Source: a candidate division WOR-3 bacterium
GTDB lineage: Bacteria > Hydrothermota > Hydrothermia > LBFQ01 > DSFT01
Length of the DNA: 50,938 nt
Direction: 5' to 3'
NCBI GenBank assembly: GCA_965649115.1
Contig: CBFGJN010000005.1
Span: 1-50,938 of the forward strand
In this document: positions 8,411 to 27,892 of the stretch, in pieces
How the letters are laid out: each line of letters begins with the position of its first letter
Numbering within the stretch: the stretch's first letter is position 1
Notes under the pieces: generated by a model
What the model saw: only the letters and a program-made list of their open reading frames with translations
Databases searched by the model: none
Told to the model about the DNA's origin: nothing
Translations under genes and position numbers: made by a program

Positions 8411-9718
8411 TTATTTATTAGCATTTTTTGCGAAACCTAATTTTTTCTTAAAATCTTCCATTTTATCAATTATTTCCTTGTTTATAGATGGTCTTATTTC
8501 GTCTAATGCTTTTTTAATATCATCCTCTATAATTTTTTCTCTATTACCATTAATTGCTATTTCTTTTGACACTTTACAGAGTTGATATATATCCGCACCA
8601 CAATAATATTCATTAGCAGTACCACTTTCATAAATGTTTTTTAATAAACTTGGTAATATATTTGTATTAAGTAGGTAGTCAAAATTATTTTTATTGTCAT
8701 AATACTTTTTTAGACTATTTTCTAAAATTTGTTTTACTTGTCCTATATCTGGTGGTGGCACATAAAATACTGCGTCAAATCTACCAGGTCTTAAAAACGC
8801 TGGATCTATCATTTCTGGTTGGTTTGTTGTCATAATTATAAATATGAGATTTTTATTGACCTCATATTCAAAAATTCTACTCCACTGAGAAAGTAATGTA
8901 GGTGTTACTCTTTGCATTACAGAAGAAGTTTGTTCTTCTCTTTTTCTTAAAATCCATTCTGCTTCATCTATAAATAAAACCCCTCTTTCTGATGATAAAA
9001 GTTCATTAAATATATTTTCAACTCTTTTCTCTGCTTCACCTGGAAAACCACTTATATCATGTGCTTTTATTTCAAAGTACTTACCATCAATTTCATTAGC
9101 AAGAGCCCTTGAAAACATCGTTTTACCTGTTCCTGGCGGTCCAAATAATAAAATTCCATATTTTGGATTATGGTCTAATTTTTCAACAAGCTCTTTCCAT
9201 TTATTCCAGTCCATTTGACTAGTTTTTTGAAAACTAATTTTCCTCTTTATGTAATTTTTAAGACCATCAAGTCCTGCAATATCATCAAATTTTATTTTGG
9301 TTCCAGGTTTAAATAAACAAGCATTTACAATTTCTTCAAACTCTTGGCCTGTAATAAAACCCCTTTCTGAATATTTAATTTTAATTTCTGAAGCAAGGTG
9401 GGGATACCTACTACTAATTAAACTTAAATAAACATCAAATTTTTTATCTGTCTCTCTAAACTTAACCCTGTAAGGAAAATTAACTTTATTATTATAGTGT
9501 CCAAAAATATCATTTTTATCATCATAATAGCCATCACTTTCTGCTTCATAAATACCCATAATTCTATAATCTTTATCCTCCTTAACAATCAAAATAGCTT
9601 GATCACCTTTTTTCACTTCACGAAGATAATCACGATTATCAGCAAAAATTTTATGTTCAAAAACCTTTTCAAGTGTATAAGATGTAGCAATAGTTATAAA
9701 GTAATTTCTCTCTGTCAT
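8411..9718 (-). CDS. EVE (PUA-like) domain fused to a classical-clade AAA ATPase; last gene of the cmr operon
   Basis: N-term VKKGDQAILIV..IMGIYEA..Y.D..IF..FPYRVKF (EVE-like); Walker A GPPGTGKT, Walker B LFIDE, SRH TTNQPEMIDPAFLRPGRFD; SD GGGAGG and 1-nt gap after cmr3. Confidence 0.8.
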   Translation of the reverse strand: MTERNYFITIATSYTLEKVFEHKIFADNRDYLREVKKGDQAILIVKEDKDYRIMGIYEAESDGYYDDKNDIFGHYNNKVNFPYRVKFRETDKKFDVYLSLISSRYPHLASEIKIKYSERGFITGQEFEEIVNACLFKPGTKIKFDDIAGLDGLKNYIKRKISFQKTSQMDWNKWKELVEKLDHNPKYGILLFGPPGTGKTMFSRALANEIDGKYFEIKAHDISGFPGEAEKRVENIFNELLSSERGVLFIDEAEWILRKREEQTSSVMQRVTPTLLSQWSRIFEYEVNKNLIFIIMTTNQPEMIDPAFLRPGRFDAVFYVPPPDIGQVKQILENSLKKYYDNKNNFDYLLNTNILPSLLKNIYESGTANEYYCGADIYQLCKVSKEIAINGNREKIIEDDIKKALDEIRPSINKEIIDKMEDFKKKLGFAKNANK

Positions 9719-9719
9719 A

Positions 9720-10847
9720 TTAAAACCTCCCGTAAATAACCAAGTTTGTTCCTATAAAGTTTTTGTCTCTTTGTAAAAACTCAAACCAAAACGAATTATG
9801 AGAAAAATTACTATCAACTTCCGCATAAACAACACTTCCCGCTTTTAGAGCCTTTTTTACAAATTTATTTAATCCAAGTTGTCTTGAATCTATCGCTAAA
9901 TTTATAAATCCATTTGAAACAAGCGATTTAATTTTTATTCCATTTATTGAAGGTAAAATATCATTTCCTAAATTACTTGAAAATGTAGCAGGTGTTAAGA
10001 AAAGGATTTTTATTATATCTCCTTGATTTACTTTTATTGCCTCTCTAAATAGATTTTTTATGTCAGAATTATTTTCAATCTCATAATAGGCGCTTTTCAT
10101 TTCACCACCAAGTTTTAATGACTTTGGTTCTTTTTTGAAGAAATTGTAAATTTTATTTTCATCAAGATTGGCTTTTTTTAGCTCATTATTATCAAAATCA
10201 AATTCAACCCAAAAGACAAAATACCAATCGTATTCTTTATATCCATTTTCCATCTTATACTTTCCATCTTTCAATCTCAAAAAATCAATTCTATAAAGTC
10301 CATCTTCCTCAACAACAGTATGATAACTCATATCTTGCCTTATTCCAACCCTATTTTCATATTCAAAAATATCTTTAAACTTGATAATTTCATTTTTATC
10401 TGGAATTTGTCCATTTAACCATTTTTTAAGACCATCTTGACTTATAAATCCATCAAAGTCTTCAACCTCTTCCTCTCCAAAATAAATAGCAAATTTTTCA
10501 ATTGGATTTGGTTTGTTTGTATTATTTGGATTAAAAAGCTTATAATTTTCATTTGGAAATTTCAGAAGATAAATTTTATCATCTTTTCCTTTTCTTCCTG
10601 TGTAAATATCAGCAGGTTTAGGAAAATAGATTTTTCCATCTTTTTCATTATAAAGAAATGGACCATAAACAGCTTTTAGAATTTTTGTAATATCTATTTT
10701 ATATTCCCAATAAATTTTAGAGCATATAGCACTTGCAAAAGTATGAGGAAAAGGAGGAAAAATTGAACTTGCAATATCTCCAAGATTAAAAGGCTTTCCA
10801 CTTCCAAAAAATAAAACATCATAAGGTTTTATTTTGAATTTAAGCAT
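9720..10847 (-). CDS. cmr3: Type III-B CRISPR RAMP Cmr3 (Cas5 family)
   Basis: IKPYDVLFFGSGKPF, FPPFPHT, ENRVGI, LKLGGE, LTPA, AGSVVY. Confidence 0.92.
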   Translation of the reverse strand: MLKFKIKPYDVLFFGSGKPFNLGDIASSIFPPFPHTFASAICSKIYWEYKIDITKILKAVYGPFLYNEKDGKIYFPKPADIYTGRKGKDDKIYLLKFPNENYKLFNPNNTNKPNPIEKFAIYFGEEEVEDFDGFISQDGLKKWLNGQIPDKNEIIKFKDIFEYENRVGIRQDMSYHTVVEEDGLYRIDFLRLKDGKYKMENGYKEYDWYFVFWVEFDFDNNELKKANLDENKIYNFFKKEPKSLKLGGEMKSAYYEIENNSDIKNLFREAIKVNQGDIIKILFLTPATFSSNLGNDILPSINGIKIKSLVSNGFINLAIDSRQLGLNKFVKKALKAGSVVYAEVDSNFSHNSFWFEFLQRDKNFIGTNLVIYGRF

Positions 10848-10850
10848 GTT

Positions 10851-12074
10851 TTAAACCTCCCTTGGGTAAATTTTTTGTTTATTTCTAACAAAAATAGATA
10901 TCAAATCCCAATTGACACGCTCATTTATTTCACGATCAGGATAAAATATCAAATCTTTTTTTGGTTTTGGTTTATATATTATAAAAAGCAAAACATAATT
11001 ACTCTGTGAAATCTCAATAATTTTAAACATCAATGGGGAAGCCTTTCTTAAATTTCTGTATCTTCCTACACTAACTATTGGAAGCCCAAAAACTATCCTT
11101 TGATTTATATTTTTTGATTGTCTAAATTTTTTGTATTCAGAACCAGCTTGATCCATAAGGTTTTTCCAATCATTTTTCTCCTCGTATTTATAAACTTCAA
11201 AGTGTTCAAAAAGGTAAGGTATGCCATTTCTTGGTTTAGGATTTAAAATATTTTTTATCTTTTCAAGATTATCTTTTATCCAATTTTCTATTTGAGGTGT
11301 CGGTAAGAAACTCAAATCAAAACAATTTGATATTAAATCTTTATTATTTTCTTCAATTTTCTCTACTTTTATTGACCCGAAACCTCTTCTGCTTCTACTT
11401 CCAAAATTTCCAAGATTAAATGCAAGCCATAAAGCACAGAAAAATTTTTTAATATCATCATCAGTTGATTTGGGATGAAAACGAATGGTTAAGGTAAAAG
11501 TCGTATCTTCTGGAATTAGTTCTCTCTTATTTGCCTTTAATGAAAATCCTAAATAGGAGTATCCTTCTAATTGAAGGTATAAAGGATAATAAATGAACGG
11601 ACTATACTTTGTTATATCCTTAATCTCAGGTTTAGATAAAAACTCCTCAATTTGTTTTTTTATATAAGTAAGCTCGCGTAAATTTTTCTTTAAACTATCT
11701 AAATTTCTTTGTAGTTTTTGTTTTTCCTCGTGATTCTTTTCTTTTTTAAGTTTTTCTTCTATTTTATTTATTTCTTCTCGTGTTTCCTTTATTCCTTTTT
11801 CCAATACTTTTGTTTTATTATCTTGTGCAAAACTTTTAATTCTATCTAAGTTAAATTCCTCTTTACTTAGACTTATTCTCACCAATCCCTGATTTGCTTT
11901 ATCTCCACCCCATCCAAAAATTCTTCTTTCATCTTCAATAGAACCACCTGCAATTCTAAACCACCATCTCAAAATCCCATTTATGCTTTGAGTTCTCAAT
12001 TCTGCCTGCTGATTTGCTCCACCAAGAAAAAGAGGCGTTATGATTTTACACTTTAAATTAAAAGTTCTCATCAT
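10851..12074 (-). CDS. cmr1: Type III-B CRISPR RAMP Cmr1 (copy b, with coiled-coil insertion)
   Basis: ITPLFLGGA, ELRTQSINGILRWWFR, FGSRSRRGFG, FGLP, RKASPL. Confidence 0.92.
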   Translation of the reverse strand: MMRTFNLKCKIITPLFLGGANQQAELRTQSINGILRWWFRIAGGSIEDERRIFGWGGDKANQGLVRISLSKEEFNLDRIKSFAQDNKTKVLEKGIKETREEINKIEEKLKKEKNHEEKQKLQRNLDSLKKNLRELTYIKKQIEEFLSKPEIKDITKYSPFIYYPLYLQLEGYSYLGFSLKANKRELIPEDTTFTLTIRFHPKSTDDDIKKFFCALWLAFNLGNFGSRSRRGFGSIKVEKIEENNKDLISNCFDLSFLPTPQIENWIKDNLEKIKNILNPKPRNGIPYLFEHFEVYKYEEKNDWKNLMDQAGSEYKKFRQSKNINQRIVFGLPIVSVGRYRNLRKASPLMFKIIEISQSNYVLLFIIYKPKPKKDLIFYPDREINERVNWDLISIFVRNKQKIYPREV

Positions 12075-12127
12075 AACTTAACCTCCTATGTAATTTTTAA
12101 GAGTTTCTATTTGATAAATAAACCTTT

Positions 12128-14734
12128 TCATACTCTAACCTCCCTTGATAAAAATCTTGAAATTAAAAAGAGATTGACAAAATACTTCACCTCAAAGTTG
12201 TAGTTTTCAAATTGTTTTATGATTTCTTCAATATATTTTTTATTTTCAACCTTCTTTCTAAAATAAATTCGTTTTAGTTCAACTTTTAAAAGTTCTTTAT
12301 TTTCAATCATTTCATTTTCATAAATTTCTGAAAATTCCTTTGCGAAACCTGATGGAATTTGCTCATTTTTGAACTTACAAATTAAGTCATTTATAAAATT
12401 AATTAAATCCCATTTCCCACCTGTATCTCTAATTTCACCTGAATGAGAAATAACTCTTATACAAAAGGCATCTTTTTTAAATGTCTCTTTTGCCATTTTT
12501 TCAGCATTTCTTACTTCCTTCAAGGCAAGATATAATGGATATTTATGATGAACTATAACAATTCCAGCACTCATACTTGCCTTTGGACTTAACACTTCTT
12601 TAAAAGTTTTTTGTAAATTAAAAGCACAACTTAAAACTTCTTCAATTGGCAAGAATGCTAAAAGATCATCACCACCTGCATAAATGAGCTTTCCATAATG
12701 ATAATCTTCAACGATTTTTCTAACTTCTTCAAGTGCAAATTTTGAAAGTCTTCTTGAAAATGCTTGGTGAATTGATGGAGAAACAGGATGTTCAGAACAG
12801 AGAAGCTTTTTAAGTTCATCTATATCTTTTCCTTCACTATATGAAATTAAAGTATCAATAACTTTTGAGTGAATTGTATCTTTTATTTTTGGATTAAATT
12901 CACCTTTTAACCACTTGCCCATATTATCTCCATCCATTTGTAAAATAGCATAGTATTTTGAAGGGGAGATTTTGTTATTTTCTATGAATTTAAGAATATC
13001 TTCATAATCTCCTTCACTCACATCTAAACCATATTCCTTTTTAAAATAATCCTTTCTGTAAGTTTCTTTCATTAGGAATTGTCCGTCTATTTGATAAAGT
13101 AGATCATTTTTTAATTTTGGAACGGAGATCGTTTCGGGAAGTTTTTGTGTGAATAACCTCGGTTTTTTAATTAAATTACCTTGGTTATCTTCTTCGTATT
13201 TAAAATTAAAAATATTAACAAATTTTTTCTTCACCTGTTCATCCAACCTTCTCTTTTCTCCAATACTTGCCATTTCGGAAGTTGAAGGGAATTTAATTTC
13301 AGTTTGTAATTTAAGTTTTTCCTTTATTATTTCAGGAAATAATCTTTTTGTTATACAAACACCGCAGAGTTTCTCGCCTTTCTTCAATAATCCTGGTTTC
13401 TTATTCCTTAAACTATTCCAATCTATATCCAAAACCTCAAACTCACCACATAAATGACATTTTTCTCCTCTACTTTCATAATAATTTTCTTCTAAAACAT
13501 TTCTAATTGATTTTCTTGCTCCAAGAAGTTTTTCAGTAAGTTCTAATAATAATGAATAGGCAGAACCAACATTAGCAGGTTTATAATAAGGATGTTCTAC
13601 AATTGTTTTTATTGTCTGATAAAGATTATTGTTGTTTGAAATCAATTTTCCATAATCTTCAAGAGCTTCATTTGGACTATAATTTTGAGTATCATTTGTC
13701 CAAGGCAAAACTACCCAATATGCTTGGAAGTAGTTTAAAAGATGAGTTTTGATTTGGTATTTAAGATTTTGATTTGAAGAACAATTTGAGAGTTTATCGG
13801 AAACTTTTTTAGAAATTTCTTCTAATTCATCTCTAAAAGTTTTTTCAACTTCTTTTGCCAAATTATTTCCATTTTCATAAGGAATAATTGCTAAAAATCT
13901 ATTTGGAAAGTTTGCAATTGTAAGAGTTTCATCAGAAAAAGCATTATCTATGAATTTTTTGAAATAGTGTTCATTAGAAAAATTTTGGATTATAGGGGAA
14001 TTCTTAAACTTCTCATAAAGCCATCTATCAACTAATGGTTGTCCTAAAAGATTTGGGAATATAACATTATCAGGTCCAAGTTTTTCCATCACTACTTCAA
14101 TACATTTATATATGAAATACGAAAGCATATAACTACCTGCCCATAAATCAGATGTTTTCCTTGCTTTTGAGATAAATTCTTGAACAGGTGATATTGTAAA
14201 TAGTAAGAATGCTGGTTTTGGTAAAGCAGAAACAATAGCAGAAGTTTGGACTAAATGGTCGTAAATTGAATGGTTTGGAGCTCTTGTATCAGCAGGATGT
14301 TTTTCAATTTCAGGGAAAATTTCGGGATAAAAACGCCAAAGGAAGAGAAAGATAAATTTTGCTCTTTCACCTTGATTTTGAAAAGTTAAATTTCCAAGTT
14401 TTTCAAATAATTTTTTAACTTTTTCTTCGTCGGGTGATTGAATTGGTTCTTTTCTTTTGGAGAAAATATCTATGAATTGACATTCATGATAATCAACTTG
14501 GGAAGATTTTTCAAATTGATCTTTTTTATTCTGCTCATTGAAATTTGGCTCGATAATGACTCTACTTTGAGCGAAAGAAAGTTTGTCTGAAATACTTACA
14601 ATATCTTCTTTAAGACTTTCATTTGGAAATATCTTTTGAAAAAGTTTTTCAGCCTCATCATAATGGGTTTTTATAAACTTTGCCTTATATGGTGGGTCGT
14701 GAAGCAAAGCTTTTAATTTAAGCTTCCAGTCCAT
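12128..14734 (-). CDS. cas10: Type III-B Cas10/Cmr2 cyclic oligoadenylate synthase subunit
   Basis: LLHDP, PADTR, KTSDLWAGSY, CxxC..CxxC zinc finger, MDGDNMG, YAGGDD palm motif. Confidence 0.97.
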   Translation of the reverse strand: MDWKLKLKALLHDPPYKAKFIKTHYDEAEKLFQKIFPNESLKEDIVSISDKLSFAQSRVIIEPNFNEQNKKDQFEKSSQVDYHECQFIDIFSKRKEPIQSPDEEKVKKLFEKLGNLTFQNQGERAKFIFLFLWRFYPEIFPEIEKHPADTRAPNHSIYDHLVQTSAIVSALPKPAFLLFTISPVQEFISKARKTSDLWAGSYMLSYFIYKCIEVVMEKLGPDNVIFPNLLGQPLVDRWLYEKFKNSPIIQNFSNEHYFKKFIDNAFSDETLTIANFPNRFLAIIPYENGNNLAKEVEKTFRDELEEISKKVSDKLSNCSSNQNLKYQIKTHLLNYFQAYWVVLPWTNDTQNYSPNEALEDYGKLISNNNNLYQTIKTIVEHPYYKPANVGSAYSLLLELTEKLLGARKSIRNVLEENYYESRGEKCHLCGEFEVLDIDWNSLRNKKPGLLKKGEKLCGVCITKRLFPEIIKEKLKLQTEIKFPSTSEMASIGEKRRLDEQVKKKFVNIFNFKYEEDNQGNLIKKPRLFTQKLPETISVPKLKNDLLYQIDGQFLMKETYRKDYFKKEYGLDVSEGDYEDILKFIENNKISPSKYYAILQMDGDNMGKWLKGEFNPKIKDTIHSKVIDTLISYSEGKDIDELKKLLCSEHPVSPSIHQAFSRRLSKFALEEVRKIVEDYHYGKLIYAGGDDLLAFLPIEEVLSCAFNLQKTFKEVLSPKASMSAGIVIVHHKYPLYLALKEVRNAEKMAKETFKKDAFCIRVISHSGEIRDTGGKWDLINFINDLICKFKNEQIPSGFAKEFSEIYENEMIENKELLKVELKRIYFRKKVENKKYIEEIIKQFENYNFEVKYFVNLFLISRFLSREVRV

Positions 14735-14738
14735 AGTT

Positions 14739-16013
14739 TTACCTCCTTGGTATTTCCTCTATTAAAAATTCTTGAATTATATTTTCGCATGAACGATTAA
14801 AGTTTTGAACTATATTTGAACCATTAAAAATTATTGTGTTTTTACTTATCGTAAATAAGTTTTGATTTAAAATTCTCAATAAGCCTCTATGAGCAAAGAA
14901 ATTTCTTTTTAATTTTTTGAGATCATTTGGAAGAAGAAAACTTTTCTTAGATTTGAAAAACCTATTTATTTCTAAAATTATCTCATTTCTTAAAGTAGCA
15001 ATTCGTCTATATAACTTTCTTGTTAATTCTACAATTTTAATCTGACTTACTTGACTTTGATTTTTGAATCCAATTTTATTTAAAATAAATGAAATTAAGT
15101 AAATTTTTACTAAATCTGAAGTTTTTTCAGAAATTTGAATTTGCCTTTTAACAACATTTCCATTAACCAAAATGTTTGAATAAAAATTATTTAATTCAGC
15201 TCCAATATCATTTTTTAAATTGTTCAAATCGGGCATATAGTAATAAATGAAGTAAGGAAGACCATGAATAATTGAAGAACCAAAACAATAATATCTTAAT
15301 TCATTATTTTGTTGATTTTTCTTAATCATTTGCTTAAATTGATTTAGCAAGTTATGGTCTATTGAAATTGGAAAGTTTGGGAAAACTTGAAAATTAACTA
15401 TTTTATTTATTCTGTATTTGCTTTTTGTAGAAACGGGAGCGACAGGTTCAGAATAAAGAACTTTTAAATTTACCATAAAGAAATAAGATAAAATTTGAGC
15501 CATCTCATAAATGGCATCATAAATTGAAACAATATGATAATTTTGCCCATGCGTAATATCAAAAACTATTTCTATATTTTTGTCATTTGAATTAAGAACA
15601 TTTTGAATAATATAATCAGTAAGTTCGTATAAAGTAATATGATAAAAATCTCTTGGATTACCTTCATAAGATGAATTAGAATAATTGCCAACCCCTGGTG
15701 AAACTATTATCTTATTTACTTTAATTTGATGTTGATTAATAATGCTTTGGGCACAATTTATTGCTCTTTGCTTTACATCATTATAATCAGAAAATGGATT
15801 TGGATCATAACAATCACAATTATTCTTATTACTTTTTGGTAAAAAACTTGAATTAGCAAGTGTATCTGAAATTACAATAATTGCATAATTTGGATTTTCA
15901 ACTTTATGAATCACTTCCAAACTTGTTGAAGCAATAGTAGTCTGACCTTCATATTCATATTCTACAATTTCCCAACTACATGGATTTCCCCACGTTGCTA
16001 TAAGCACTTTCAT
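14739..16013 (-). CDS. csx1: Csx1 CARF-HEPN ribonuclease
   Basis: MKVLIATWGNP..W..Y start, DITHGQN CARF motif, RNFFAH HEPN motif. Confidence 0.88.
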   Translation of the reverse strand: MKVLIATWGNPCSWEIVEYEYEGQTTIASTSLEVIHKVENPNYAIIVISDTLANSSFLPKSNKNNCDCYDPNPFSDYNDVKQRAINCAQSIINQHQIKVNKIIVSPGVGNYSNSSYEGNPRDFYHITLYELTDYIIQNVLNSNDKNIEIVFDITHGQNYHIVSIYDAIYEMAQILSYFFMVNLKVLYSEPVAPVSTKSKYRINKIVNFQVFPNFPISIDHNLLNQFKQMIKKNQQNNELRYYCFGSSIIHGLPYFIYYYMPDLNNLKNDIGAELNNFYSNILVNGNVVKRQIQISEKTSDLVKIYLISFILNKIGFKNQSQVSQIKIVELTRKLYRRIATLRNEIILEINRFFKSKKSFLLPNDLKKLKRNFFAHRGLLRILNQNLFTISKNTIIFNGSNIVQNFNRSCENIIQEFLIEEIPRR

Positions 16014-16016
16014 TTT

Positions 16017-16937
16017 TTAGCCTCCTTCTGCCATTATGACATCAAAAACTTTAACTTCCTTACTATTCGTTGAAACATAAACAAAATATCTATCATAACT
16101 TAAAGAATAAAAAGCACCTGCAATACTTTGAACCTTTTGACCTCCTGTTGTATCAATTAAAATTTCATTATCTTTCAGACTTTTTTCCTTTAATTCTCTA
16201 AATGCCTCTTCCAAGGCTAATATATTTTTTTCAAGATTTTCAAAATCTATACCTTGATTGTGTCCTATAATTTGAACATTTGGAAAGAATTTTTTTACAA
16301 GCTCTTCAAAATGTTTGATTTGATTATAAGAGCCATTTTCACTTCCAATAACATAAAGGTATTCAATTTGATTATATTTTTCTAAAATTCTCAATTGCAT
16401 TTCCCAAGAACATCTTGGATATGATAAGTAAAAACTTTCAAGGTTTTCAAAATCGCAAGGATTAAAACTTTGTGGCATATTATTCCAATAACTCAAAAAC
16501 ATAACTAAACCCTTAATTTTTTTTGGTGAAACTTCTTTAACTGAAAATCTTAAACCTTCCGAACTTCTTATATATAACCAAATTACTAAAAAAGCACTTG
16601 AAGATAATGAAAATTGGATAAAAACTAATAAATTTTCTTTTAAAAATTCCCTTAAAGCGAAAGCAAAAAGAAGAACAACAAAAGCAGAAAGGACAATAGC
16701 AAAAAATAAATGATTTTCTTTTATTTTGCTCAATTTTCCAATAAGCCAATAAAAAGATAAATTTAAAATAATAATACCTCCTGAAATTCCTACAAAACAT
16801 AAATTGCCTTCATATAATAATTTTAAAAATTCAGCAAATCCATCAGCAAACCAAGAAACTGAAAGAATAAAAATTAATGCAATTATAAAAGTTTGAGGTT
16901 TTCTAATTCTACCTAATTGTCTAATTAAGAATTCCAT
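16017..16937 (-). CDS. Membrane-anchored CARF effector (Cam1-like), about 4 TM helices plus C-terminal CARF
   Basis: Four hydrophobic segments in the first ~125 aa; GLVMFLS and IDTTGGQK CARF motifs. Confidence 0.78.
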   Translation of the reverse strand: MEFLIRQLGRIRKPQTFIIALIFILSVSWFADGFAEFLKLLYEGNLCFVGISGGIIILNLSFYWLIGKLSKIKENHLFFAIVLSAFVVLLFAFALREFLKENLLVFIQFSLSSSAFLVIWLYIRSSEGLRFSVKEVSPKKIKGLVMFLSYWNNMPQSFNPCDFENLESFYLSYPRCSWEMQLRILEKYNQIEYLYVIGSENGSYNQIKHFEELVKKFFPNVQIIGHNQGIDFENLEKNILALEEAFRELKEKSLKDNEILIDTTGGQKVQSIAGAFYSLSYDRYFVYVSTNSKEVKVFDVIMAEGG

Positions 16938-16943
16938 TTACTT

Positions 16944-17813
16944 TCAATCATTTCCTAATATCTCCATCGCCAAAAGTTTCAAAAGTGGTCTTTGATCTTT
17001 CGTTTTATAGTAGTATTCTACCAGTGCTCTTGCTAATCTATATGGAATTTCAAAAGATAAGACAAAAAACGAAAACCAATAAAATGGATAAAATGGATAA
17101 TAACGCCTTAAAATGTAAATTATTTCATCAATATCATATGGATAAAACCACCAATGTATCCTATTAAACTTTCTATCTTTCCAATCTTCAAGAACAAATG
17201 GAAGAAAGTCTTTGTTATATTTTAACCAATAATAGCAACCTTGATATTCAAGTGGTTGATTTTTTATAAATTCAGAAACAATAGCTTTTTCCTTATCAAA
17301 ATGAATAAATGCAATAGCATTAGCAAGACTTTCTTCTATAATCCTCTCGTGTTCATTTAATTTATCTGTTTTTAAGTAAGCATGGACAAGCTCGTGAATA
17401 AGGACTTTTTGAAATATAATTTGAGGTTCTTTATGCTTATAAATCCTTTCAGGACAAATATAAATTTTATTTTCATTCTTAGAATAGCAAGCAAGAGCAG
17501 GAAAAGTCCATTTATTACATTCAGAAACCTCACCCCATAAAGAATTTACAATACTTACACTTTCTTCATAATTTCCAATATTTTCATTGAAATTTACTAT
17601 TCTCTCTCTAACCTTCCTAATAGCGGAACGGGCACATTCAGGGTCATATCCTTTTTGAGGAGGACAAATGTTGTCCATCGTTTTTTCATTTACAAGCTCA
17701 ATTTGAGAAATTTCAGCATATGCTTTTGCTAGAAAAGTTAGCCTACTTACAGCAGATCTTACAAGACCAAAGCTTATTTGTATTGAACTATCTCTATTTT
17801 TAACCTTTTCCAT
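16944..17813 (-). CDS. Putative zinc metalloprotease (HExxH..E) in the cmr operon
   Basis: VLIHELVHAY followed by IIEESLANA; aromatic-rich C-terminus; SD AGGAGG. Confidence 0.65.
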   Translation of the reverse strand: MEKVKNRDSSIQISFGLVRSAVSRLTFLAKAYAEISQIELVNEKTMDNICPPQKGYDPECARSAIRKVRERIVNFNENIGNYEESVSIVNSLWGEVSECNKWTFPALACYSKNENKIYICPERIYKHKEPQIIFQKVLIHELVHAYLKTDKLNEHERIIEESLANAIAFIHFDKEKAIVSEFIKNQPLEYQGCYYWLKYNKDFLPFVLEDWKDRKFNRIHWWFYPYDIDEIIYILRRYYPFYPFYWFSFFVLSFEIPYRLARALVEYYYKTKDQRPLLKLLAMEILGND

Positions 17814-17827
17814 ATCTTAACCTCCTT

Positions 17828-18643
17828 TTAAAAAACTAAATTTCTTAAAATAAAACTTCCTTTACTTGTTATTTTCAATCTATAAACTTCTGTATCCCTT
17901 TCAATATCAACAAGACCATAAATTTCAAGCCTTGTTAATTCATCGTTATATTTATCAAAAAGAATTTTAGCATGTTCTCCACTTATAATAGTTTCCTTTG
18001 ACAACTCTTTTAAAACTTCTAATTCCCTTCCCTTTGGCAAATAAAATAATTTTGGAAGAAATACAACTTCATTAAATTCCTCATTCATATAATAAATATC
18101 GCAGTTAAGTAAAAATCCCGCTAATGCACAAGTTATAACATGAGCTTTAAGTCCTCCCGTCGGATTAAAATAAACATTATATCCTTCATTCATCTTCTTA
18201 CTTGCAATTGAAATAAGTCTATCAAGAAGTTCAACAATACCTTTTTTAAATTCATCTCTTGCATATTTTTCATCAAATTGTGCCTCAAAGAAATATCCTG
18301 AAACTTCATAAGGATTATAAAGTTTAACACCTATTTCTTTTAAATAACTTTCTATTGCTCTTCTTGAAAGTTCGTTTGAATTTGTACTCGTTCCAAAAAG
18401 ATAAACTTCAATATCATTATAGTTTTTATTTTCAATAACCCTTAAAAATGTATTTAGTTCAGCACAGCTCAACTTAGGATTTTCTTTTATGAATCCTTTA
18501 AGCTTTTCAATCGTTTGAGGATTTTCCAAAAGTTCTTTCCACTTATTTTCATCAGCAATTCTTATATCACTTGGAATTATGTTTTTCCTTTGAGCATTCG
18601 TTATAAGAGAAACACCTGTGCTTATTATATGAAATTCTTTCAT
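17828..18643 (-). CDS. crn1: APE2256/Crn1-family CARF protein (probable ring nuclease) with C-terminal wHTH
   Basis: IISTGVSLITN, SCAELN, NPTGGLK, YYMNE. Confidence 0.78.
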   Translation of the reverse strand: MKEFHIISTGVSLITNAQRKNIIPSDIRIADENKWKELLENPQTIEKLKGFIKENPKLSCAELNTFLRVIENKNYNDIEVYLFGTSTNSNELSRRAIESYLKEIGVKLYNPYEVSGYFFEAQFDEKYARDEFKKGIVELLDRLISIASKKMNEGYNVYFNPTGGLKAHVITCALAGFLLNCDIYYMNEEFNEVVFLPKLFYLPKGRELEVLKELSKETIISGEHAKILFDKYNDELTRLEIYGLVDIERDTEVYRLKITSKGSFILRNLVF

Positions 18644-19542
18644 TTTTTAACCTCCTCTTTAAAAAGTCCATATCCAAGCCTTGTTTTTGAACCAACACCA
18701 AACTCACAAAGAGCCTCTTTTAAAATCTCACCAAAAAATTTCTGATTTCTTATTAAATCCTCAACACAATTTTTAACCTTTTCCGAAAAATTATCTTTTA
18801 TCTTTTCCCATCTAAAATCATCAAACAAAACATTAAATTGAAATTCAACTCCTTCCTTTACTACTAAAAAGAAAATAGGTCTTGGATTTTCCCAATCACC
18901 AGGAGCACTTTTTCCTTCATAATAACTTGGATAATGAACATTCATTATGTCAAGGTCAAAAATTTGAGAATTATTTTCTGTTGGATAGGCATCAAGGAAT
19001 AAAAGTAGTCCTTTGAAATTTTGAGCTCCAAAAAGAAGTTGGTATTTTAGAATTTCTTCATCATCTTTGACAAGTTCTTTATAGAATTCTTCTTGAATTT
19101 GAATTCCTTTGCTTTCTGCCAATTTCCAAAACGCAACTGCTCTACAAACGCCTTTTAAAGCACTTCCTGGAATATAAGGCACACCAAGAATATGATGTAA
19201 TGTTATTGAAGTTTCAAGAACATGTTGTGAGCCAAGACCAATAATTAAACGAGATTGGGTTGAAATTCTATTACTATATACTAATTCATATTTTTGATTT
19301 TTTACAAGAAAACTAACTTGTTCCTCAATTCTCTTTAATGAGATTCTGTATGGATAATACACTTTACTATTTGAAAAATTAACATTAGAAAAACTTTGAA
19401 GGAAATTCCTCTTTAACTTTGTGTTCTCAATTATTTCTTTTTTGATAAGTTTTGTTAAGGCGAGAGAGGCATTTTCGCAATTTTGGAAATTTATAGAAAC
19501 ACCATTATAGATTTTATTTATAAGGTCATTATAACCTTTCAT
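18640..19542 (-). CDS. cmr6: Type III-B CRISPR RAMP Cmr6
   Basis: RLIIGLG..LETSITLHHILGVPYIPGSALKG, DIMNVHY, GVGSKTRLGYG. Confidence 0.96.
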   Translation of the reverse strand: MKGYNDLINKIYNGVSINFQNCENASLALTKLIKKEIIENTKLKRNFLQSFSNVNFSNSKVYYPYRISLKRIEEQVSFLVKNQKYELVYSNRISTQSRLIIGLGSQHVLETSITLHHILGVPYIPGSALKGVCRAVAFWKLAESKGIQIQEEFYKELVKDDEEILKYQLLFGAQNFKGLLLFLDAYPTENNSQIFDLDIMNVHYPSYYEGKSAPGDWENPRPIFFLVVKEGVEFQFNVLFDDFRWEKIKDNFSEKVKNCVEDLIRNQKFFGEILKEALCEFGVGSKTRLGYGLFKEEVKK

Positions 19543-19666
19543 CCTCCAACCTCCTCTTTAACTTTTTTAAACCTTTCTATAAGGTTTTCTTGCAGCAATT
19601 TTTCAAACCCCAATTTTTTAATAATCCCTTTTTCAAACTCTTGAAAGGTTTTTTGTTTTTAACCAT
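19539..19666 (-). pseudogene. Probable ~42-aa mini-ORF with a 1-nt frameshift in an A-run
   Basis: ATG 1 nt after the cmr5 stop and TGA overlapping the cmr6 ATG; 128 nt long; the -1 frame reads QKTFQEFEKGIIKKLGFEKLLQENLIERFKKVKEEVGG. Confidence 0.4.
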
Positions 19667-19667
19667 T

Positions 19668-20069
19668 TTACTCCTCTTTTAACTCTACTTCCGCCATCCT
19701 TTTAAGCCATGTTGCTATGTTTAAAACTTCACTTGTAGTAAGTCTTAATGTTTGAGGATCAGTTTCAAGCAAAAAATCAAGCAGGTCTTTGTTTGGGTTA
19801 TTATTTTTCCAATCTAAATATGGTTTAAAGTTTAACTTTCCTAAAATTTCAGAAATATCTTGAAAAATTTGCCCTCTGTCTTTTCCTTTTGATTTATAGA
19901 ATGCTAATGCCGGAATTAGGCCGTTATTAACAATTGTAGAGGGCAGTCGCTTGATATAAGAAGAATAATCTTTTATATAATCCTTGTTATTAGTTTTTTT
20001 TATCCTCCTTACACACTCCAAAGAAAGTTCCGCTATCTGTTGATGTTTTGTTTTTATAACACTACTCAT
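19668..20069 (-). CDS. cmr5: Type III-B small subunit Cmr5 (copy b)
   Basis: YSSYIKRLPSTIVNNGLIPALAF..WLKRMAE. Confidence 0.93.
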   Translation of the reverse strand: MSSVIKTKHQQIAELSLECVRRIKKTNNKDYIKDYSSYIKRLPSTIVNNGLIPALAFYKSKGKDRGQIFQDISEILGKLNFKPYLDWKNNNPNKDLLDFLLETDPQTLRLTTSEVLNIATWLKRMAEVELKEE

Positions 20070-20072
20070 AGT

Positions 20073-20951
20073 TTAACCTCCTTCTGTCTTATGAATTTCT
20101 ATTAGGTTAAATTTTCCTTCTATAAGCTCGTTTATTCTTTTGTTTATTTCCTCGGTTAGCCATCTATTCCAAAGCAAAACGACCCCATAATAACCTTCTT
20201 TTGCTTTCTTTATTTGAATTATTAAAGGTGAAGCTCGCCCAAGTATTATTTTATCAACATTCAATTTATTTTTTAATGCTCTATAAAAATTATCTCTTAA
20301 ATCATTCATACAATCTTGCCACGAATTCCATAAATTTCCATCTTTCTTGGTTATTAAGTAAATGGAAGTGTTTGAAATATTCATAAAATCATTATTATTT
20401 GAATTTTTTGGAAAGCTTGCCAACTTTTGTTTTATTTCTTTTTTAATTTTTTCAAAATCTTCATTCTCATTATCCAATTGAATACTTCCAAATCCTCTCC
20501 TCCATCTTGCTCCAATTCCACCAAAATTTGTCATAAAGAAAATAGTTTCAATCAATTCATTTTCAATTTTAACCTCATCGCAAGGTTTTAGAAATCTAAA
20601 TTCTATTTGAAAATCTTTATTCTCAGAAAGCGATTTTCTTCTTATTGCTATATAGTTCCTCTTAGCTCCATTTTCACCATTTTTTCTTCTATCATTCATA
20701 CATAAATAAGCATCAATTATTTTAGAAGGTTTATTCTTAATTCTTAACTTTACCCTTGAAGCAAGTTCTTGTGAGCCAAAAATTTCACTTTCATTTTTTC
20801 TTAAATCATTTAAATTCAAGCTTCCACCTTTATAAAATCTAAACCACCATCTTAAAATACCTTTTATAGATTGCTCTCTTAATTCTACTTTATCCTTATC
20901 AGCACCTGCCATAATTATTGGTGTTGTGATGTTAAATTTCAAACTTTTCAT
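20073..20951 (-). CDS. cmr1: Type III-B CRISPR RAMP Cmr1 (copy a)
   Basis: TTPIIMAGA, ELREQSIKGILRWWFR, GGIGARWRRGFG, RASPL. Confidence 0.9.
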   Translation of the reverse strand: MKSLKFNITTPIIMAGADKDKVELREQSIKGILRWWFRFYKGGSLNLNDLRKNESEIFGSQELASRVKLRIKNKPSKIIDAYLCMNDRRKNGENGAKRNYIAIRRKSLSENKDFQIEFRFLKPCDEVKIENELIETIFFMTNFGGIGARWRRGFGSIQLDNENEDFEKIKKEIKQKLASFPKNSNNNDFMNISNTSIYLITKKDGNLWNSWQDCMNDLRDNFYRALKNKLNVDKIILGRASPLIIQIKKAKEGYYGVVLLWNRWLTEEINKRINELIEGKFNLIEIHKTEGG

Positions 20952-21349
20952 GATTTTTCCTCCTTAACCATCGTTTTAACTTTATTTACGAAATTTCTCA
21001 TCTTATCCAAAAAATCAACCATATTTTTTAAGTCTTTTTCTTTTATACTACAATATTCGTAGGCTATTAAATTTCGTAAAAATACAACACTCTTTGCCTC
21101 TCTTAAATCCTCTTTGTTGATAATTCTATTTTTGCTAAGAATTTCAAAAACTTCCGAATATGTAGAAGGAAAACCTAACCTCTTTTTCATCACAACCGCT
21201 TCGGCAATATCTATTAAAGCATTAGCTGATTGAAAACATTCCATAGCCAAAGTGTTATAAATAAGATAATCTGATAAATTTTTATTTTTCAAACTTTTTG
21301 CTCCATTTAAATGTTTTTCAAACCTTAATATATTTTCTTCAATCCTCAT
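20948..21349 (-). CDS. hepT: HEPN/DUF86 (HepT-like) toxin with catalytic His replaced
   Basis: LGFPSTYSEVFEIL..FLRNLIAYEY (canonical RNxxxHxY). Confidence 0.8.
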   Translation of the reverse strand: MRIEENILRFEKHLNGAKSLKNKNLSDYLIYNTLAMECFQSANALIDIAEAVVMKKRLGFPSTYSEVFEILSKNRIINKEDLREAKSVVFLRNLIAYEYCSIKEKDLKNMVDFLDKMRNFVNKVKTMVKEEKS

Positions 21350-21707
21350 TTAAAATACTCTCCCTTATCATCTTAAAACTTCTTACCCTTTCATGAAAAT
21401 CCCTTAAAACCTTAAACTTTATTTCCGATAAAATTTCTTCATCTTTTACATATAGTTCCTTTCCAAATTTAAAAACTTCAAATTGGATATGTAAAGGCAA
21501 TCTATGAAAAAGAACCAAGTCAAGTTTTTGGGAGTACATACTTCCAATTTCGTATTCATCTTTTTCATTAGGATTTTTTAAAATTACGCATATATCAATA
21601 TCGGAAAGGGGATTACTTTCTTTCTTAGCGTAAGAACCAAAAAGATAAATTGCCACAACATTTTTATTCTTTTTGATTTTTCTTAAAATTTTATCCAATC
21701 CTTCCAT
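21339..21707 (-). CDS. mntA: Minimal nucleotidyltransferase (MntA-like antitoxin)
   Basis: YLFGSYA..SDIDI (GS-x10-DxD), LDLV. Confidence 0.9.
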   Translation of the reverse strand: MEGLDKILRKIKKNKNVVAIYLFGSYAKKESNPLSDIDICVILKNPNEKDEYEIGSMYSQKLDLVLFHRLPLHIQFEVFKFGKELYVKDEEILSEIKFKVLRDFHERVRSFKMIRESILNED

Positions 21708-21714
21708 TTTAGTT

Positions 21715-22035
21715 TCAACTTTCCATTTCAGAAAATCTTTTCAAATAATTTGAAAGTTTTAGTGCTTCAAGCGTTGCTTTTCTTAAAGTTTGCAAATCAG
21801 CATTTAAAAGTTCATTTAAAGCATCATTCTGAATTAAACCTTTCTTTTTCAGCCAATTTGAAATAGTGTTATAAACATTTTTTTCTTCTTTATAATAAGC
21901 AAGTGTCGGAATAAGTCCATTTGTCATTATAAGATTTGGAAGTTTTTTAAATTCTCTTTTTTCACTTTCACCTGAATTTTTTACTTCATCATTAGCAAAT
22001 TTTGCTATTTCTTGTTCAAGGGTTTTGGCCGCCAT
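21715..22035 (-). CDS. cmr5: Type III-B small subunit Cmr5 (copy a)
   Basis: KTLEQ..KKLPNLIMTNGLIPTLAY..EAL..YLKRF. Confidence 0.92.
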   Translation of the reverse strand: MAAKTLEQEIAKFANDEVKNSGESEKREFKKLPNLIMTNGLIPTLAYYKEEKNVYNTISNWLKKKGLIQNDALNELLNADLQTLRKATLEALKLSNYLKRFSEMES

Positions 22036-22969
22036 GGGTTTGACTTTTTTGATTAGTGTTTATTTTTTCAAACTTTACTTTTACAAATCCTTTTCCAAGT
22101 GTCTCATCAGCGCCAAGTTGAAGGATTTGATGACCATTCGGAAATAAAGTAGATAATTCTCTTAAAACATCATCAGCACTATTTAAATTTGAAGACTTAT
22201 TATACGGCTCACTTATGAAAACCAAGCTATAAAAAACACTTTCAGAAGGAATTAATTCTTCACTAAATAAAGCACCTTCCTTAACAGTTCCTGTTGTTTG
22301 GTCAATTCTAATTCTTGTCCTGATTTCAACAGCATAATTTACAAAATCCTTAAAAACATCATCTGAAACAATTGCAAAATGATTTTTGAAGAAGTCTTCA
22401 TTAAATTCAGTTTGTGGAAGTAGTTTAAAAACTTCCTCTGCTATGTTATCAGAATTTTGATTATTTTCTATATCAAAAACGAATTCTTCAAAAGCAACTT
22501 GATTATTATCTATTTTTAAATCACTTGAAGAACATAAAATAACTTTTTCATTCTGTATATTATCTGGAATTTGTATATCATTCCCTTGATTATCTTTGAA
22601 CTCTTTTCCTATACTCTTTAAATCCTCTTTTAACCTTTTCAAGACAAATGGACAAGTAATCCAAGCAAATGTTCCTTTTACAGAACGAACAGGAAATAGA
22701 AGAATTTTAGCATCAGTTATACTTATACAGCTTGCATATTGATCTGAGCCTTCTTCTGGACCAAAAATGACATTCACTTTATCTTTATCATTCCACTTTC
22801 TATAAGCAAGTTCTCTTACAACACCCTTTATACCACTTGACCATAGCGTAGGATAAGATGTATGTCTTTCTCTTTGAACAACATTATCAACAAATGATAC
22901 ACTTTGACCTGAACCCATATGTATTGGTGTTAGTGCATAGAATGTAAGATATCCTTTTTGCTTGTACAT
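22016..22969 (-). CDS. cmr4: Type III-B CRISPR RAMP Cmr4 (Cas7, RNA-cleaving subunit)
   Basis: TPIHMGSGQ..VDNVVQRE, DAKILLFPVRS, GALFSEE, QLGADETLGKG; start placed at ATG 22969 after SD AGGAGG. Confidence 0.97.
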   Translation of the reverse strand: MYKQKGYLTFYALTPIHMGSGQSVSFVDNVVQRERHTSYPTLWSSGIKGVVRELAYRKWNDKDKVNVIFGPEEGSDQYASCISITDAKILLFPVRSVKGTFAWITCPFVLKRLKEDLKSIGKEFKDNQGNDIQIPDNIQNEKVILCSSSDLKIDNNQVAFEEFVFDIENNQNSDNIAEEVFKLLPQTEFNEDFFKNHFAIVSDDVFKDFVNYAVEIRTRIRIDQTTGTVKEGALFSEELIPSESVFYSLVFISEPYNKSSNLNSADDVLRELSTLFPNGHQILQLGADETLGKGFVKVKFEKINTNQKSQTHGGQNP

Positions 22970-23002
22970 AAATTTACCTCCTAATTTTAAAGTGAAAGTC
23001 AA

Positions 23003-23008
23003 ATTTTA
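23003..23008 (-). promoter_or_regulatory. Candidate -10 box of the cmr operon promoter
   Basis: GCTTTAAAATTT on the minus strand (second copy at 22984-22989), same motif as housekeeping promoters. Confidence 0.45.
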
Positions 23009-23159
23009 AAGCTTTTTTCAAACTCAAAAAACCTCTAAAATTCAATAATTTCAAGAATTAAATTAACGAAATCGTTGAAAATACTAAATTTCCAAATTTT
23101 ATTAAATTTTAAAACAAAAAGCTTTAAAATTTTAAATTTTTTATCTAATAGAATAGTTT

Positions 23160-23645
23160 TTTGTTAAGTCTTTATGACTAAAAATGGTTTTAATGGGGAG
23201 CTCTGCTCCCCCAAAGCAAAAGAGAGGGTTTTTTAAAGCCGAAGGCTTGTATTTAGGGTGGGTGGGAAAATATAATAAAATAAGGACTTTCAGAATTCCT
23301 AGACAAAATAGGACATAAATGCTTTGTCCAGTAAATAATGTTAAGTAAAAAGCCCCCCGAAGCCGAAATATGGGTATTTTTAAGCCGAAGGCTTAATATC
23401 AGGGCGAGTGGGAAAAATATAGAAATAATTATATTTTTAGAATTACTAGACAAACCAAAAATAAATTGCTTTGTCCAGTAAATAATGTTAAGTGCTTGAT
23501 AGTCAATAACTTATTAAAAATTCATTAAAATTCTTGAAATAATGGGGGGAATTTAAGGGGGGCGGAGTTAAAGCCGAAGGCTTATATTCAGGGTGGGTGG
23601 GAGAAGTATAGAAATAATTATATTTTCAGAATTACTAGACAAAAC
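23160..23645. mobile_element. Tandem cluster of three MITE-like copies (decayed copy, 23321-23456, 23468-23645)
   Basis: 11-nt junctions AGGACATAAAT (23310-23320), AAAAATAAATT (23457-23467) and AGGACATAAAA (23646-23656). Confidence 0.82.
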
Positions 23646-25544: not shown

Positions 25545-26095
25545 AAACCTTTTTTTGGAATTTTTGGACACAGCATCAATATGGGCATTTTAAAGACGCA
25601 GCCTTTATTTTAGAGTGGGCGGGCAAAATATAGTAAAATAAATAATTTCAGAATTTTTAGACACAGCAAATTTAATCTGCTTTGTCCAGTAAATAATGTT
25701 AAGTGCTTGATAGTCAATAACTTATTAAAAATTCATTAAAATTCTTGAAATAATGGGGGGAATTTAAGGGGGGCGAAGCCCCCCAAAGCATAAGAATGGG
25801 CATTTTAAAGCCGAAGGCTTATATTCAGGGTGGGTGGGCAAAATAAGAAATAATCTATATTTCCGAATTACTAGACAAAACATCAGAATTTTGCTTTGTC
25901 CAATAAATAATGTTAAGTGATTGATAGTCAATAACTTATAAAATTTTTAAAGAAATTATTGATTTTATGGGGGATTATAGGGGGGGCTTTGCCCCCCATA
26001 ACCGAAAAATGGGTATTTTTAAGCCGAAGGCTTAATATCAGGGTGGGTGGGAAAAATATAGAAAAATAAATAATTTCAGAATTATTAGACACAGC
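25545..26095. mobile_element. Tandem MITE-like cluster: decayed copy plus two 203-bp copies (25679-25881, 25893-26095)
   Basis: Junction AAATTTAATCT (25668-25678); ATCAGAATTTT on both sides of the last copy (25882-25892, 26096-26106). Confidence 0.88.
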
Positions 26096-26130
26096 ATCAG
26101 AATTTTTACTTTATGCTTTAAACTTTCCTT

Positions 26131-27375: not shown

Positions 27376-27892
27376 GTTTAAATTCCACGTTGTTTAAATT
27401 CCACTATGTTCAGATGAAACAAAGAAGTTCTTACAATAGAAATGAATATCATCAATATGTTTAAATTCCACTATGTTCAGATAAAACTCGCAAATCACGG
27501 AACCAAAAGGGTCAACATAGAAATCAAAATCTGTTTAAATTCCACTATGTTCAGATAAAACACATAGTGGAATGAGAATAAAAAGGGGGTGGAAAATAGT
27601 TTAAATTCCACTATGTTCAGATAAAACCAAAGAAGAAAAAAGCTCAGATATAAGCACTGAAATAATGTTTAAATTCCACTATGTTCAGATAAAACTCATC
27701 ACGAACGGATTAACCCCCGGTATGTTTATACCGTTTAAATTCCACTATGTTCAGATAAAACGCTTTATTATTTGTCACGAGTTAGCACACTATTACCGTT
27801 TAAATTCCACTATGTTCAGATAAAACGTGGTAAAAATTCTCCTCGATACAATTGATGACACAAGTTTAAATTCCACTATGTTCAGATAAAAC
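27376..27892 (-). CRISPR. CRISPR array: 8 repeats of 29 bp and 7 spacers (36-45 nt)
   Basis: Plus-strand repeat GTTTAAATTCCACTATGTTCAGATAAAAC at 27392, 27459, 27533, 27599, 27667, 27733, 27798 and 27864; variant repeat and partial copy at the left (trailer) end; minus-strand repeat ends in ATTTAAAC, a typical 8-nt handle. Confidence 0.97.

Follow-up and report, generated by a model that had tools for sequence, protein, structure and literature searches.

How could a putative protease that carries no sensor of its own be switched on inside a CRISPR operon that works through nucleotide signals? This question is raised by a gene on contig CBFGJN010000005.1 (GenBank assembly GCA_965649115.1) of a candidate division WOR-3 bacterium, of which the whole stretch analysed here, positions 1 to 50,938, is called the window. 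The gene encodes a 289-amino-acid protein with an HExxH motif, hereafter the zincin, and lies on the minus strand within a type III-B (Cmr) operon, among genes for CARF proteins. We propose that the zincin is a sensor-less ancillary metallopeptidase of type III-B systems that signal with cyclic tetraadenylate (cA4), and that it is gated via a partner or the state of its substrate. This is the explanation that we favour, although tentatively, as we give it somewhat less than an even chance. The open reading frame in the window is intact, with its boundaries exactly at 16944 and 17813, and the following features belong to it:

16944..17813, minus strand: gene of the 289-amino-acid zincin-fold protein (open reading frame with ATG start; AlphaFold2 model; zincin-fold matches; homologues)
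17821..17825, minus strand: Shine-Dalgarno sequence GGAGG, 7 nt 5' of the ATG and inside the 14-nt gap after the CARF7 gene
17382..17396, minus strand: codons of H140-E141-L142-V143-H144, the HExxH motif, in helix 130-147
17328..17336, minus strand: codons of E160-E161-S162, candidate third metal ligand, in the next helix 154-169
17028..17213, minus strand: W/Y/F-rich, low-confidence, hypervariable segment, residues ~201-262 (W/Y/F counts, model confidence, homologue comparison)

In the translation HELVH occupies residues 140-144 and IEESLANA residues 159-166. All strings that a first-pass annotation of this DNA had picked out (ALACY...NKIYICPERIY, VLIHELVHAY, EESLANA, HWWFYPY and RYYPFYPFYWF) are present, and the strong Shine-Dalgarno sequence it mentioned is the GGAGG seven nucleotides before the ATG. 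The HExxH and the EES of its motif are there as well, but not the spacing of 12 residues between HAY and EES, which is 13, and the motif therefore has to be written as HExxH-x15-EE. The C-terminus, described there as rich in W, Y, F and P, is strongly biased: W/Y/F make up 30% of the last 96 residues versus 9% of the part before, with 8, 10 and 13 such residues in the 30-residue windows across positions 181-270, and the bias is also found in 20 of 22 close homologues (17-30%). A membrane anchor in this aromatic tail was considered and rejected, as the maximal 19-residue Kyte-Doolittle mean is 1.16 compared to 2.97 in the neighbouring transmembrane (TM)-CARF protein.

Conservation was counted in an alignment of 86 members of the zincin family. 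H140, H144 and Y190 are invariant (86/86) and three glutamates nearly so (E141 84/86, E160 85/86, E161 84/86); together with these, R123, P187 and E189 are retained in 81-85 of the 86 sequences, and C120 in 78. Judged by this conservation, HELVH is more than a chance HExxH.

An AlphaFold2 model, built from a 22-sequence alignment, shows a single zincin domain plus helices, with a mean pLDDT (predicted local distance difference test) of 87.1 and a pTM (predicted template modelling score) of 0.87. HELVH lies inside helix 130-147, and E160/E161, 15-16 residues after H144, lie on the following helix 154-169. Low confidence is limited to blocks 211-260 (pLDDT 49-75). Foldseek found no match to the model in the PDB at E <= 0.001; the best row and the sole one of high probability was YbeY (E 0.25, probability 0.97). 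An aligner independent of Foldseek was run over 48,161 representative chains, and in at least 45 of its 50 best rows the match is a zinc metallopeptidase, an HExxH domain or YbeY, with Z values of 5.5-9.6. YbeY proteins take the first three places (Z 9.3-9.6 over 117-125 residues), followed among the peptidases by LTA4H (7.8 over 173 residues), BepA (7.8), M1 aminopeptidases (7.4-7.7) and BlaR1 (7.4), by selecase (7.3 over 105 of 109 residues) and thermolysin (6.6), and at lower values by Wss1 (6.1), SPRTN (6.0) and ArdC (5.6). Re-alignment of Foldseek's own list agrees with this picture and gives IrrE a Z of 5.9 over 84 residues. These Z values are middling by the aligner's own note, and the zincin fold with gluzincin-type motifs is supported by the uniformity of the match list together with the invariant motif, not by high Z values. 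In a profile search against the sequences of solved structures nothing fell below E 0.2, the value reached by the YbeY-family chain 1tvi. D150 was considered as a metzincin-like third ligand and rejected, since this position is not conserved.

As the model contains a zincin core and the catalytic residues are invariant, the protein would be an active metallohydrolase and most likely a peptidase. Its metal site is predicted to consist of the HExxH on one helix and one glutamate of the EE pair on the next, with the invariant Tyr190 as likely helper in the transition state.

No curated family accommodates the protein. A Pfam scan gave only sub-threshold rows, all of them zincin families: DA1-like with 19.8 bits (cut-off 25), and then M76, MPTase-PolyVal, SprT-like, BSP and M91. 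The NCBIfam and PADLOC scans gave no match. When the 86 members were scanned singly against Pfam no common family appeared; the commonest rows were DUF4344 in six members (best E 3.5e-4) and DA1-like in four (best 5.7e-4, which is the E of the window's own row), and two re-scanned DUF4344 matches as well as the window's DA1-like match fall below the cut-offs. A word-indexed search of 5.8 billion proteins yielded 22 relatives, and HMMER, run exhaustively on 1.84 billion cluster representatives, yielded 138 with E <= 1e-3, of which 42 reach <= 1e-10 and 6 reach <= 1e-30, while all ESM Atlas neighbours are 'hypothetical protein' clusters without Pfam families. With regard to a phage origin, tblastn gave no match to the zincin in 50,697 phage records, none of 54 pattern matches in viral contigs was confirmed as a relative, and the PHROGs rows are weak (best 6.2e-5). 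On sequence grounds, the zincin family is new, rare and without a name, and no curated family claims the protein of the window.

The likeness to gluzincin-type proteases that the first-pass annotation had pointed out is borne out by the model and its matches, structure prediction having been one of the checks it suggested. Its comparison with ImmA/IrrE does not hold as a membership, as Peptidase_M78 (PF06114) gives no row for the window protein at E <= 1 (two of the 86 members match, best E 0.0022) and the IrrE structure aligns over only the 84 residues given above. DA1-like (PF12315) is the best Pfam row and DA1 has the same HExxH-x15-EE spacing; however, the sub-threshold match covers residues 130-178 only, and DA1 itself, which is found in plants, carries UIM and LIM domains. 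Among solved structures, the catalytic core is most like YbeY (UPF0054) and the minigluzincins (selecase, jannalysin, abylysin), but minigluzincins have about 110 residues, whereas the zincin also has a helical hairpin (58-97) and, in its C-terminal part, 90 aromatic-rich residues. Membership in the ImmA/IrrE, DA1 or YbeY families is thus not supported.

The annotation had also seen no CARF or SAVED domain, and in agreement with this neither gives a row in Pfam, NCBIfam or PADLOC. Fusions of the zincin to CARF or SAVED were not found either, including among proteins of 623-2000 amino acids, which is weak evidence. Because it has no nucleotide-sensing domain the zincin would be unable to read cyclic oligoadenylate itself, and because there is neither a sensor domain nor a fusion its activation would have to come from outside the protein. 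Two distant members of about 460 amino acids, P0045 and P0075, have an EVE domain at the N-terminus (E 5.4e-9 and 6.2e-7), which hints that some relatives read modified nucleic acids.

The second line of evidence is the genomic position. In the window the genes follow each other, all on the minus strand, in the order Cmr4-like RAMP, Cmr5, MNT/HepT pair, RAMP protein, Cmr5, Cmr6, CARF7, zincin, TM+CARF, Csx1, Cas10/Cmr2, Cmr1-like and Cmr3. The TM+CARF gene begins 6 nt past the stop codon of the zincin gene, which itself is separated from the CARF7 gene by 14 nt. The neighbouring features are:

17828..18643, minus strand: Crn1-like CARF7 (Cas_APE2256), 271 amino acids, upstream neighbour (Pfam PF09651 6.1e-26; PADLOC CARF7 2.9e-43)
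16017..16937, minus strand: TM+CARF protein, 306 amino acids, downstream neighbour (PADLOC PDLC01053 9.3e-41; hydropathy maximum 2.97)
14739..16013, minus strand: Csx1 (CARF+HEPN) (NCBIfam TIGR01897 4.6e-50)
12128..14734, minus strand: Cas10/Cmr2 (NCBIfam TIGR02577 1.6e-115)
10851..12074, minus strand: Cmr1-like RAMP (Pfam RAMPs plus Cmr1_like_C)
9720..10847, minus strand: Cmr3 (Pfam Cas_Cmr3 3.3e-49)
18640..23002, minus strand: upstream part of the operon with Cmr6, Cmr5, RAMP protein, HepT/MNT pair, second Cmr5 and Cmr4-like RAMP (NCBIfam Cmr6 1.6e-62; Pfam Cas_Cmr5 twice, RAMPs twice, HepT-like, Polbeta NTase)
27383..27892, strand not assigned: CRISPR array, 8 repeat copies detected, spaced 65-74 nt

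In the PDB profile search the CARF domain of the upstream neighbour found two solved Crn1-type chains, 7pq2 and 3qyf (E about 1e-28), and the earlier label 'crn1' is therefore fair; the TM-CARF that had been placed on the other side is likewise found there. A crude scan across 9500-23600 detected no terminator-like site on the minus strand, and the promoter-like sites are uninformative, with 71 compared to 71.5 in shuffles.

Homologues were compared by sorting all readable loci into 13 context groups; L011 and L012 were left out as too short and L029 and L030 as distant matches (E 7.8e-8 and 1.2e-4). In six of the 13 groups the zincin gene lies in or beside a type III locus. Beside the window itself these comprise a same-genus lineage (metagenome contigs L004, L005, L006 and L009, and L019 from genome G057) with the order DUF6036 nucleotidyltransferase, CARF7, zincin and Cmr6; genome G048 (L024) with Cmr3, Cmr4, Cmr1, Cmr5, DUF6036, Cmr6, zincin, Csx1 and Cas10; and genomes G063/G065 (L026, L027), where a DUF4230 protein precedes the zincin. 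In L026 the zincin is followed by Cmr3, Cmr4, Cmr5, Cmr6, Csx3, TM-CARF, Cas10, Csx1 and two Cmr1 genes, while L027 ends at Cmr4. In L007 a Cmr3-Cmr4-Cmr5-Cmr6-Csx3-Cas10-Cmr1 operon lies about 2 kb away from the gene in divergent orientation, and in L008 it stands between a CARF3/Cas_NE0113 gene with HTH_38/Sigma70_r4 matches and a second Cas10 with Csm3, with a Cmr module upstream. The CRISPR-linked loci have GC contents of 27-30%, 38-41% and 63% and thus do not represent one clone. This repeated co-directional embedding among CARF genes, at very different GC, suggests that the role of the zincin is tied to type III immunity.

The family is patchily distributed. A match occurs in 8 of 272 genomes of the window's phylum, six of them strong, and Cmr2 is present in five of the six strong-match genomes versus 34 of 272 overall, a comparison that is descriptive only as these genomes are kin. 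In the archaeal phylum of L002 one of 401 sampled genomes has it. Taken together, linkage of the zincin family to type III-B is credible but not exclusive. The neighbourhood analysis proposed with the first-pass annotation has hence revealed an association with CRISPR loci, in line with the type III ancillary role assumed there; about half of the sampled contexts are non-CRISPR, which speaks against an exclusive role of this kind.

The DUF4230 protein heading the Cmr operon in the G063/G065 group has 216 amino acids and an N-terminal hydrophobic helix (L026:10887-11537 and L027:9281-9931), and the two copies are 94% identical.

A property that the first-pass annotation did not contain is the hypervariability of the aromatic segment. 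Nucleotide alleles were compared between the four metagenome contigs of the same-genus lineage, which hold three zincin alleles, L005 and L006 being identical in the variable stretch. The pairwise identities are:

L004 and L005: columns 1-545, 98.7% (529/536); columns 546-765, 65.8% (131/199) with 21 gap columns; last 78 columns, 93.6%
L005 and L009: columns 1-545, 96.6%; columns 546-765, 66.8%; last 78 columns, 94.9%
L004 and L009: columns 1-545, 96.4%; columns 546-765, 80.1%; last 78 columns, 96.2%

Across the allele pairs 18-39 gap columns fall within columns 546-765. Despite these indels all four sequences keep the same conserved 3' end and the reading frame is retained through the variable stretch; in L009 N's and a 1-nt gap near alignment column 312 split the frame. 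At the protein level, all four within-lineage groups that were compared have their lowest conservation in the equivalent of residues 201-262, with values of 77.7% compared to 97.4%, 45.7 to 88.0, 46.3 to 69.5 and 37.3 to 69.1. The variable segment coincides with the poorly modelled W/Y/F-rich part, which separates the catalytic core from a conserved C-terminal helix. This pattern suggests that the segment is a recognition surface under diversifying pressure. A diversity-generating retroelement was rejected as its cause, because an adenine bias is lacking among the substitutions, the stretch also contains indels, and the loci showed no reverse transcriptase.

In the lineage of the window itself, no variant was listed in the zincin gene for any of four hot-spring runs whose contigs were compared with positions 15500-19600. 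The X1 and X4 contigs span the gene without differing letters, with a 31-nt stretch (17425-17455) unbridged by the listed X1 pieces. Since contigs drop rare variants, this result says nothing on hypervariability in that lineage. The segment offers a concrete handle, as allele swaps should change what the enzyme recognises.

In the explanation that we favour, the zincin would be a soluble single-domain gluzincin-type zinc metallopeptidase of its rare unnamed family, and its gene would have been adopted, here and in several lineages, as an ancillary of cA4-signalling Cmr operons, where it has its place among the genes for Crn1-like CARF7, TM-CARF, Csx1 and Csx3. It would cut a protein and be gated in trans, either by a partner or by the state of its substrate; possible gating partners are a CARF protein from the same locus, loaded with cA4, or a phage protein, and the specificity may be set by the hypervariable W/Y/F-rich segment.

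Several observations weigh against this explanation. Seven of the 13 context groups have no CRISPR genes in the DNA at hand. The closest homologue (L003, 42% identity) is preceded by HsdR and a YgjP-like peptidase and followed by a ParA-like ATPase and a PIN protein; in L010 and five Thermus megaplasmids the genes after the zincin encode one or two small proteins and then a PD-(D/E)XK nuclease with a UvrD helicase; and L001 has three LeoA/LeoBC-like (dynamin-like) GTPases. Two groups are contig-end loci of genome G056, from the same genus, one of them beside aspS, and the remaining two are a decayed zincin copy on another contig of the window's genome and a 2.5-kb archaeal contig. Furthermore, no partner is conserved across lineages, and no fusion to CARF or SAVED turned up among the proteins searched. 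At least 144 clusters belong to the Crn1-like CARF7 family, most of them with an identity of 45% or higher, compared to only 22 relatives of the zincin, so that this neighbour normally works without it. Between the window and the same-genus locus CARF7 is 87% identical, Cmr4 62%, Cmr3 48% and Cmr6 47%, and the zincins are only 35-36% identical, which disfavours a tight co-evolving pair of CARF7 and zincin. Finally, Cmr operons also host stand-alone modules of the toxin-antitoxin kind (HepT/MNT here, the DUF6036 nucleotidyltransferase elsewhere), and embedding alone is therefore no proof of a shared function. A conserved small partner gene beside the zincin was searched for and rejected as a candidate, because the matches remain within a lineage (two Thermus plasmid loci; L026 and L027).

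The main rival, which we regard as possible but less probable than the favoured explanation, is a defence or abortive-infection protease that acts on its own. Lit, encoded by the E. coli prophage e14, is a stand-alone HExxH protease of phage exclusion with about 300 residues and no separate sensor domain, and the zincin resembles it in size and in this simple build. Such an enzyme would sense a phage protein, cut a host or phage target, and be found in Cmr operons only through clustering and co-expression of defence genes. The lack of a sensor and of a conserved partner is in line with this, as are the varied defence modules around the homologues (type I restriction-modification, PD-(D/E)XK with UvrD, LeoA/LeoBC-like GTPases, PIN/AbiE-type genes), the other stand-alone modules in the same Cmr operons and the two EVE fusions, and a hypervariable segment would suit direct contact with a fast-evolving phage factor. 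However, in six context groups that differ widely in GC the gene is co-directional and tightly spaced within type III operons; no PADLOC model matches the zincin, and Pfam gives no row for the Lit family, Peptidase_U49, at E <= 1. In addition, a defence phenotype is known for no member of the family. Lit itself is not known to be linked to CRISPR, and to our knowledge no hypervariable segment has been described for it. There is also a bolder version of the type III explanation: as an immune-receptor-like protease arm of III-B, the zincin would recognise phage proteins, or evade phage inhibitors, through its variable segment and cut TM-CARF, Csx1 or the Crn1-like ring nuclease, and so feed a protein-level infection signal into the cA4 response or reset it. 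We consider this improbable; if true, CRISPR ancillary proteins would gain their first metalloprotease class and their first member with a population-level hypervariable recognition cassette.

Less probable still, and in our view unlikely, is a regulatory protease of the ImmA/IrrE/CapP kind. These Peptidase_M78 members are small zincins encoded beside the DNA-binding protein that they cleave, and here the substrate would be a DNA-binding CARF protein encoded just upstream, so that infection or cyclic oligoadenylate signalling would alter transcription or the level of ring nuclease. In three context groups the zincin indeed directly follows, with gaps of 12-14 nt, a CARF protein with an extra C-terminal domain, namely Crn1-like CARF7 in the window and the G057-type loci and the HTH-bearing CARF3/Cas_NE0113 in L008, and this order of binder and protease is that of ImmR-ImmA. 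In the other three CRISPR-linked groups (L024, L026 with L027, and L007), however, no CARF-HTH gene is adjacent, M78 is unmatched with IrrE at a Z of 5.9, the zincin has no GAF-like second domain, and both the unequal divergence of CARF7 and zincin and the wide occurrence of CARF7 without zincin speak against such a pair. Very unlikely is a YbeY-like nuclease, in which the zincin fold would serve metal-dependent cleavage of RNA (CRISPR RNA, target RNA or ribosomal RNA) instead of protein. It would account for the three best structural matches, more than one Z unit above the first peptidase (7.8), and for the only high-probability Foldseek row. But YbeY binds its metal through three histidines (H-x3-H-x5-H) and has no catalytic glutamate; in the zincin this motif is absent, the third position being D150, which varies in the alignment, whereas the glutamate of HExxH is kept in 84 of 86 members together with the EE pair on the next helix, as in peptidases. 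Moreover, the longer alignments (160-178 residues, including C-terminal helices) go to M1/thermolysin-type peptidases. The least probable explanation, which we hardly expect to be true, is a passenger gene without defence role that was carried along by rearrangement of a variable locus. Its varying position within the operons, the decayed second copy in the same genome and the patchy distribution would fit, but the catalytic residues do not vary among 86 diverged sequences, the indels of the hypervariable region leave the frame intact, and the embedding in type III loci is repeated.

If the zincin is indeed a type III ancillary, how could it be activated? Csx29 (TPR-CHAT, 'Craspase') is activated by contact with the effector complex and not by a nucleotide, and contact with the effector would be one possible gating route for a sensor-less protease as well. 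Csx29 and SAVED-CHAT resemble the zincin in being CRISPR type III-linked proteases; they differ in being large proteins built on the caspase-like CHAT fold, to which TPR or SAVED parts are added, while Pfam gives no CHAT match in the zincin. CalpL, which works with CalpT/CalpS, is a protease among type III ancillary genes that acts on a protein (PMC11229360), as is proposed here for the zincin, but it is a Lon-type serine protease fused to a cA4-binding SAVED domain, whereas the zincin has no sensor and no adjoining anti-sigma/sigma pair. The proteases known to act with type III CRISPR are a Lon-type enzyme and CHAT-type enzymes, which are switched on either via a nucleotide sensor fused to them or when they touch the effector complex. 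A sensor-less zincin that recurs in Cmr operons would add a third protease class to type III CRISPR.

In the literature no description of the zincin family was found in main texts, so that an unnamed listing in supplementary tables is possible. Of two surveys of type III accessory genes, Shah et al. (2018; PMC6546367) describe their peptidase clusters as aspartic, Lon-type or AB-hydrolase enzymes, and neither 'zinc' nor 'metallo' occurs in the text. The proteases named in the other, Hoikkala et al. (2024; PMC11229360), are CalpL and SAVED-CHAT, with no metalloprotease or zinc enzyme mentioned, and a 2025 survey of ring nucleases (PMC12409355), searched by term for proteases and peptidases, names none encoded next to Crn1 or other ring nucleases. 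Full-text searches for CRISPR/CARF together with metalloprotease, metallopeptidase or HExxH, and for cyclic oligoadenylate together with metalloprotease, gave nothing relevant.

Some of the loci outside CRISPR show arrangements of their own. In L003:2612-4064 two different zincins follow each other, the YgjP-like metallopeptidase and the closest homologue of the window protein, with the type I HsdR alongside. The Thermus set (L032 = NZ_AP025594.1, 11671-18996; L031 = NC_017588.1, 7408-12549) is headed by a distant zincin relative, which is followed by proteins of 173-182 and 65 amino acids and then by the PD-(D/E)XK nuclease and UvrD helicase in T. brockianus or by an MBL-fold hydrolase in strain JL-18, where the set is rearranged around an insertion sequence element. 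In the metagenome contig L010 (3708-12812) unrelated proteins, one of 204 amino acids and one with an HD domain, stand ahead of the nuclease and helicase. The Thermus set is surrounded by toxin-antitoxin and restriction genes, and together with L010 it may represent a defence module of its own. The decayed copy in the window's genome (G000 contig C41:15847-16378; L028:9889-10579) lies after two phnE permease genes; its N-terminal third is in fragments, a frameshift separates the HExxH and EES parts, and its end is shortened.

Within the operon of the window, the pair of a HepT-like RNase and an MNT-type nucleotidyltransferase (20948-21707, minus strand) is inserted between two sets of RAMP/Cmr5 genes, and a DUF6036/AbiEii-like nucleotidyltransferase is found at a similar place in L004, L005, L006, L019 and L024. 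The two Cmr5 genes (19668-20069 and 21715-22035) and two extra RAMP genes in one operon suggest a duplicated or composite Cmr module. The Cmr operon is also flanked by a non-coding repeat element at 23226-23493 and 25581-26106, with units of about 147 and 214 nt, which contains GGGTATTT.AAGCCGAAGGCTTA. A look-alike of this element lies behind the decayed zincin copy on the other contig (L028:10600-10900), and the element may be a small mobile or regulatory repeat.

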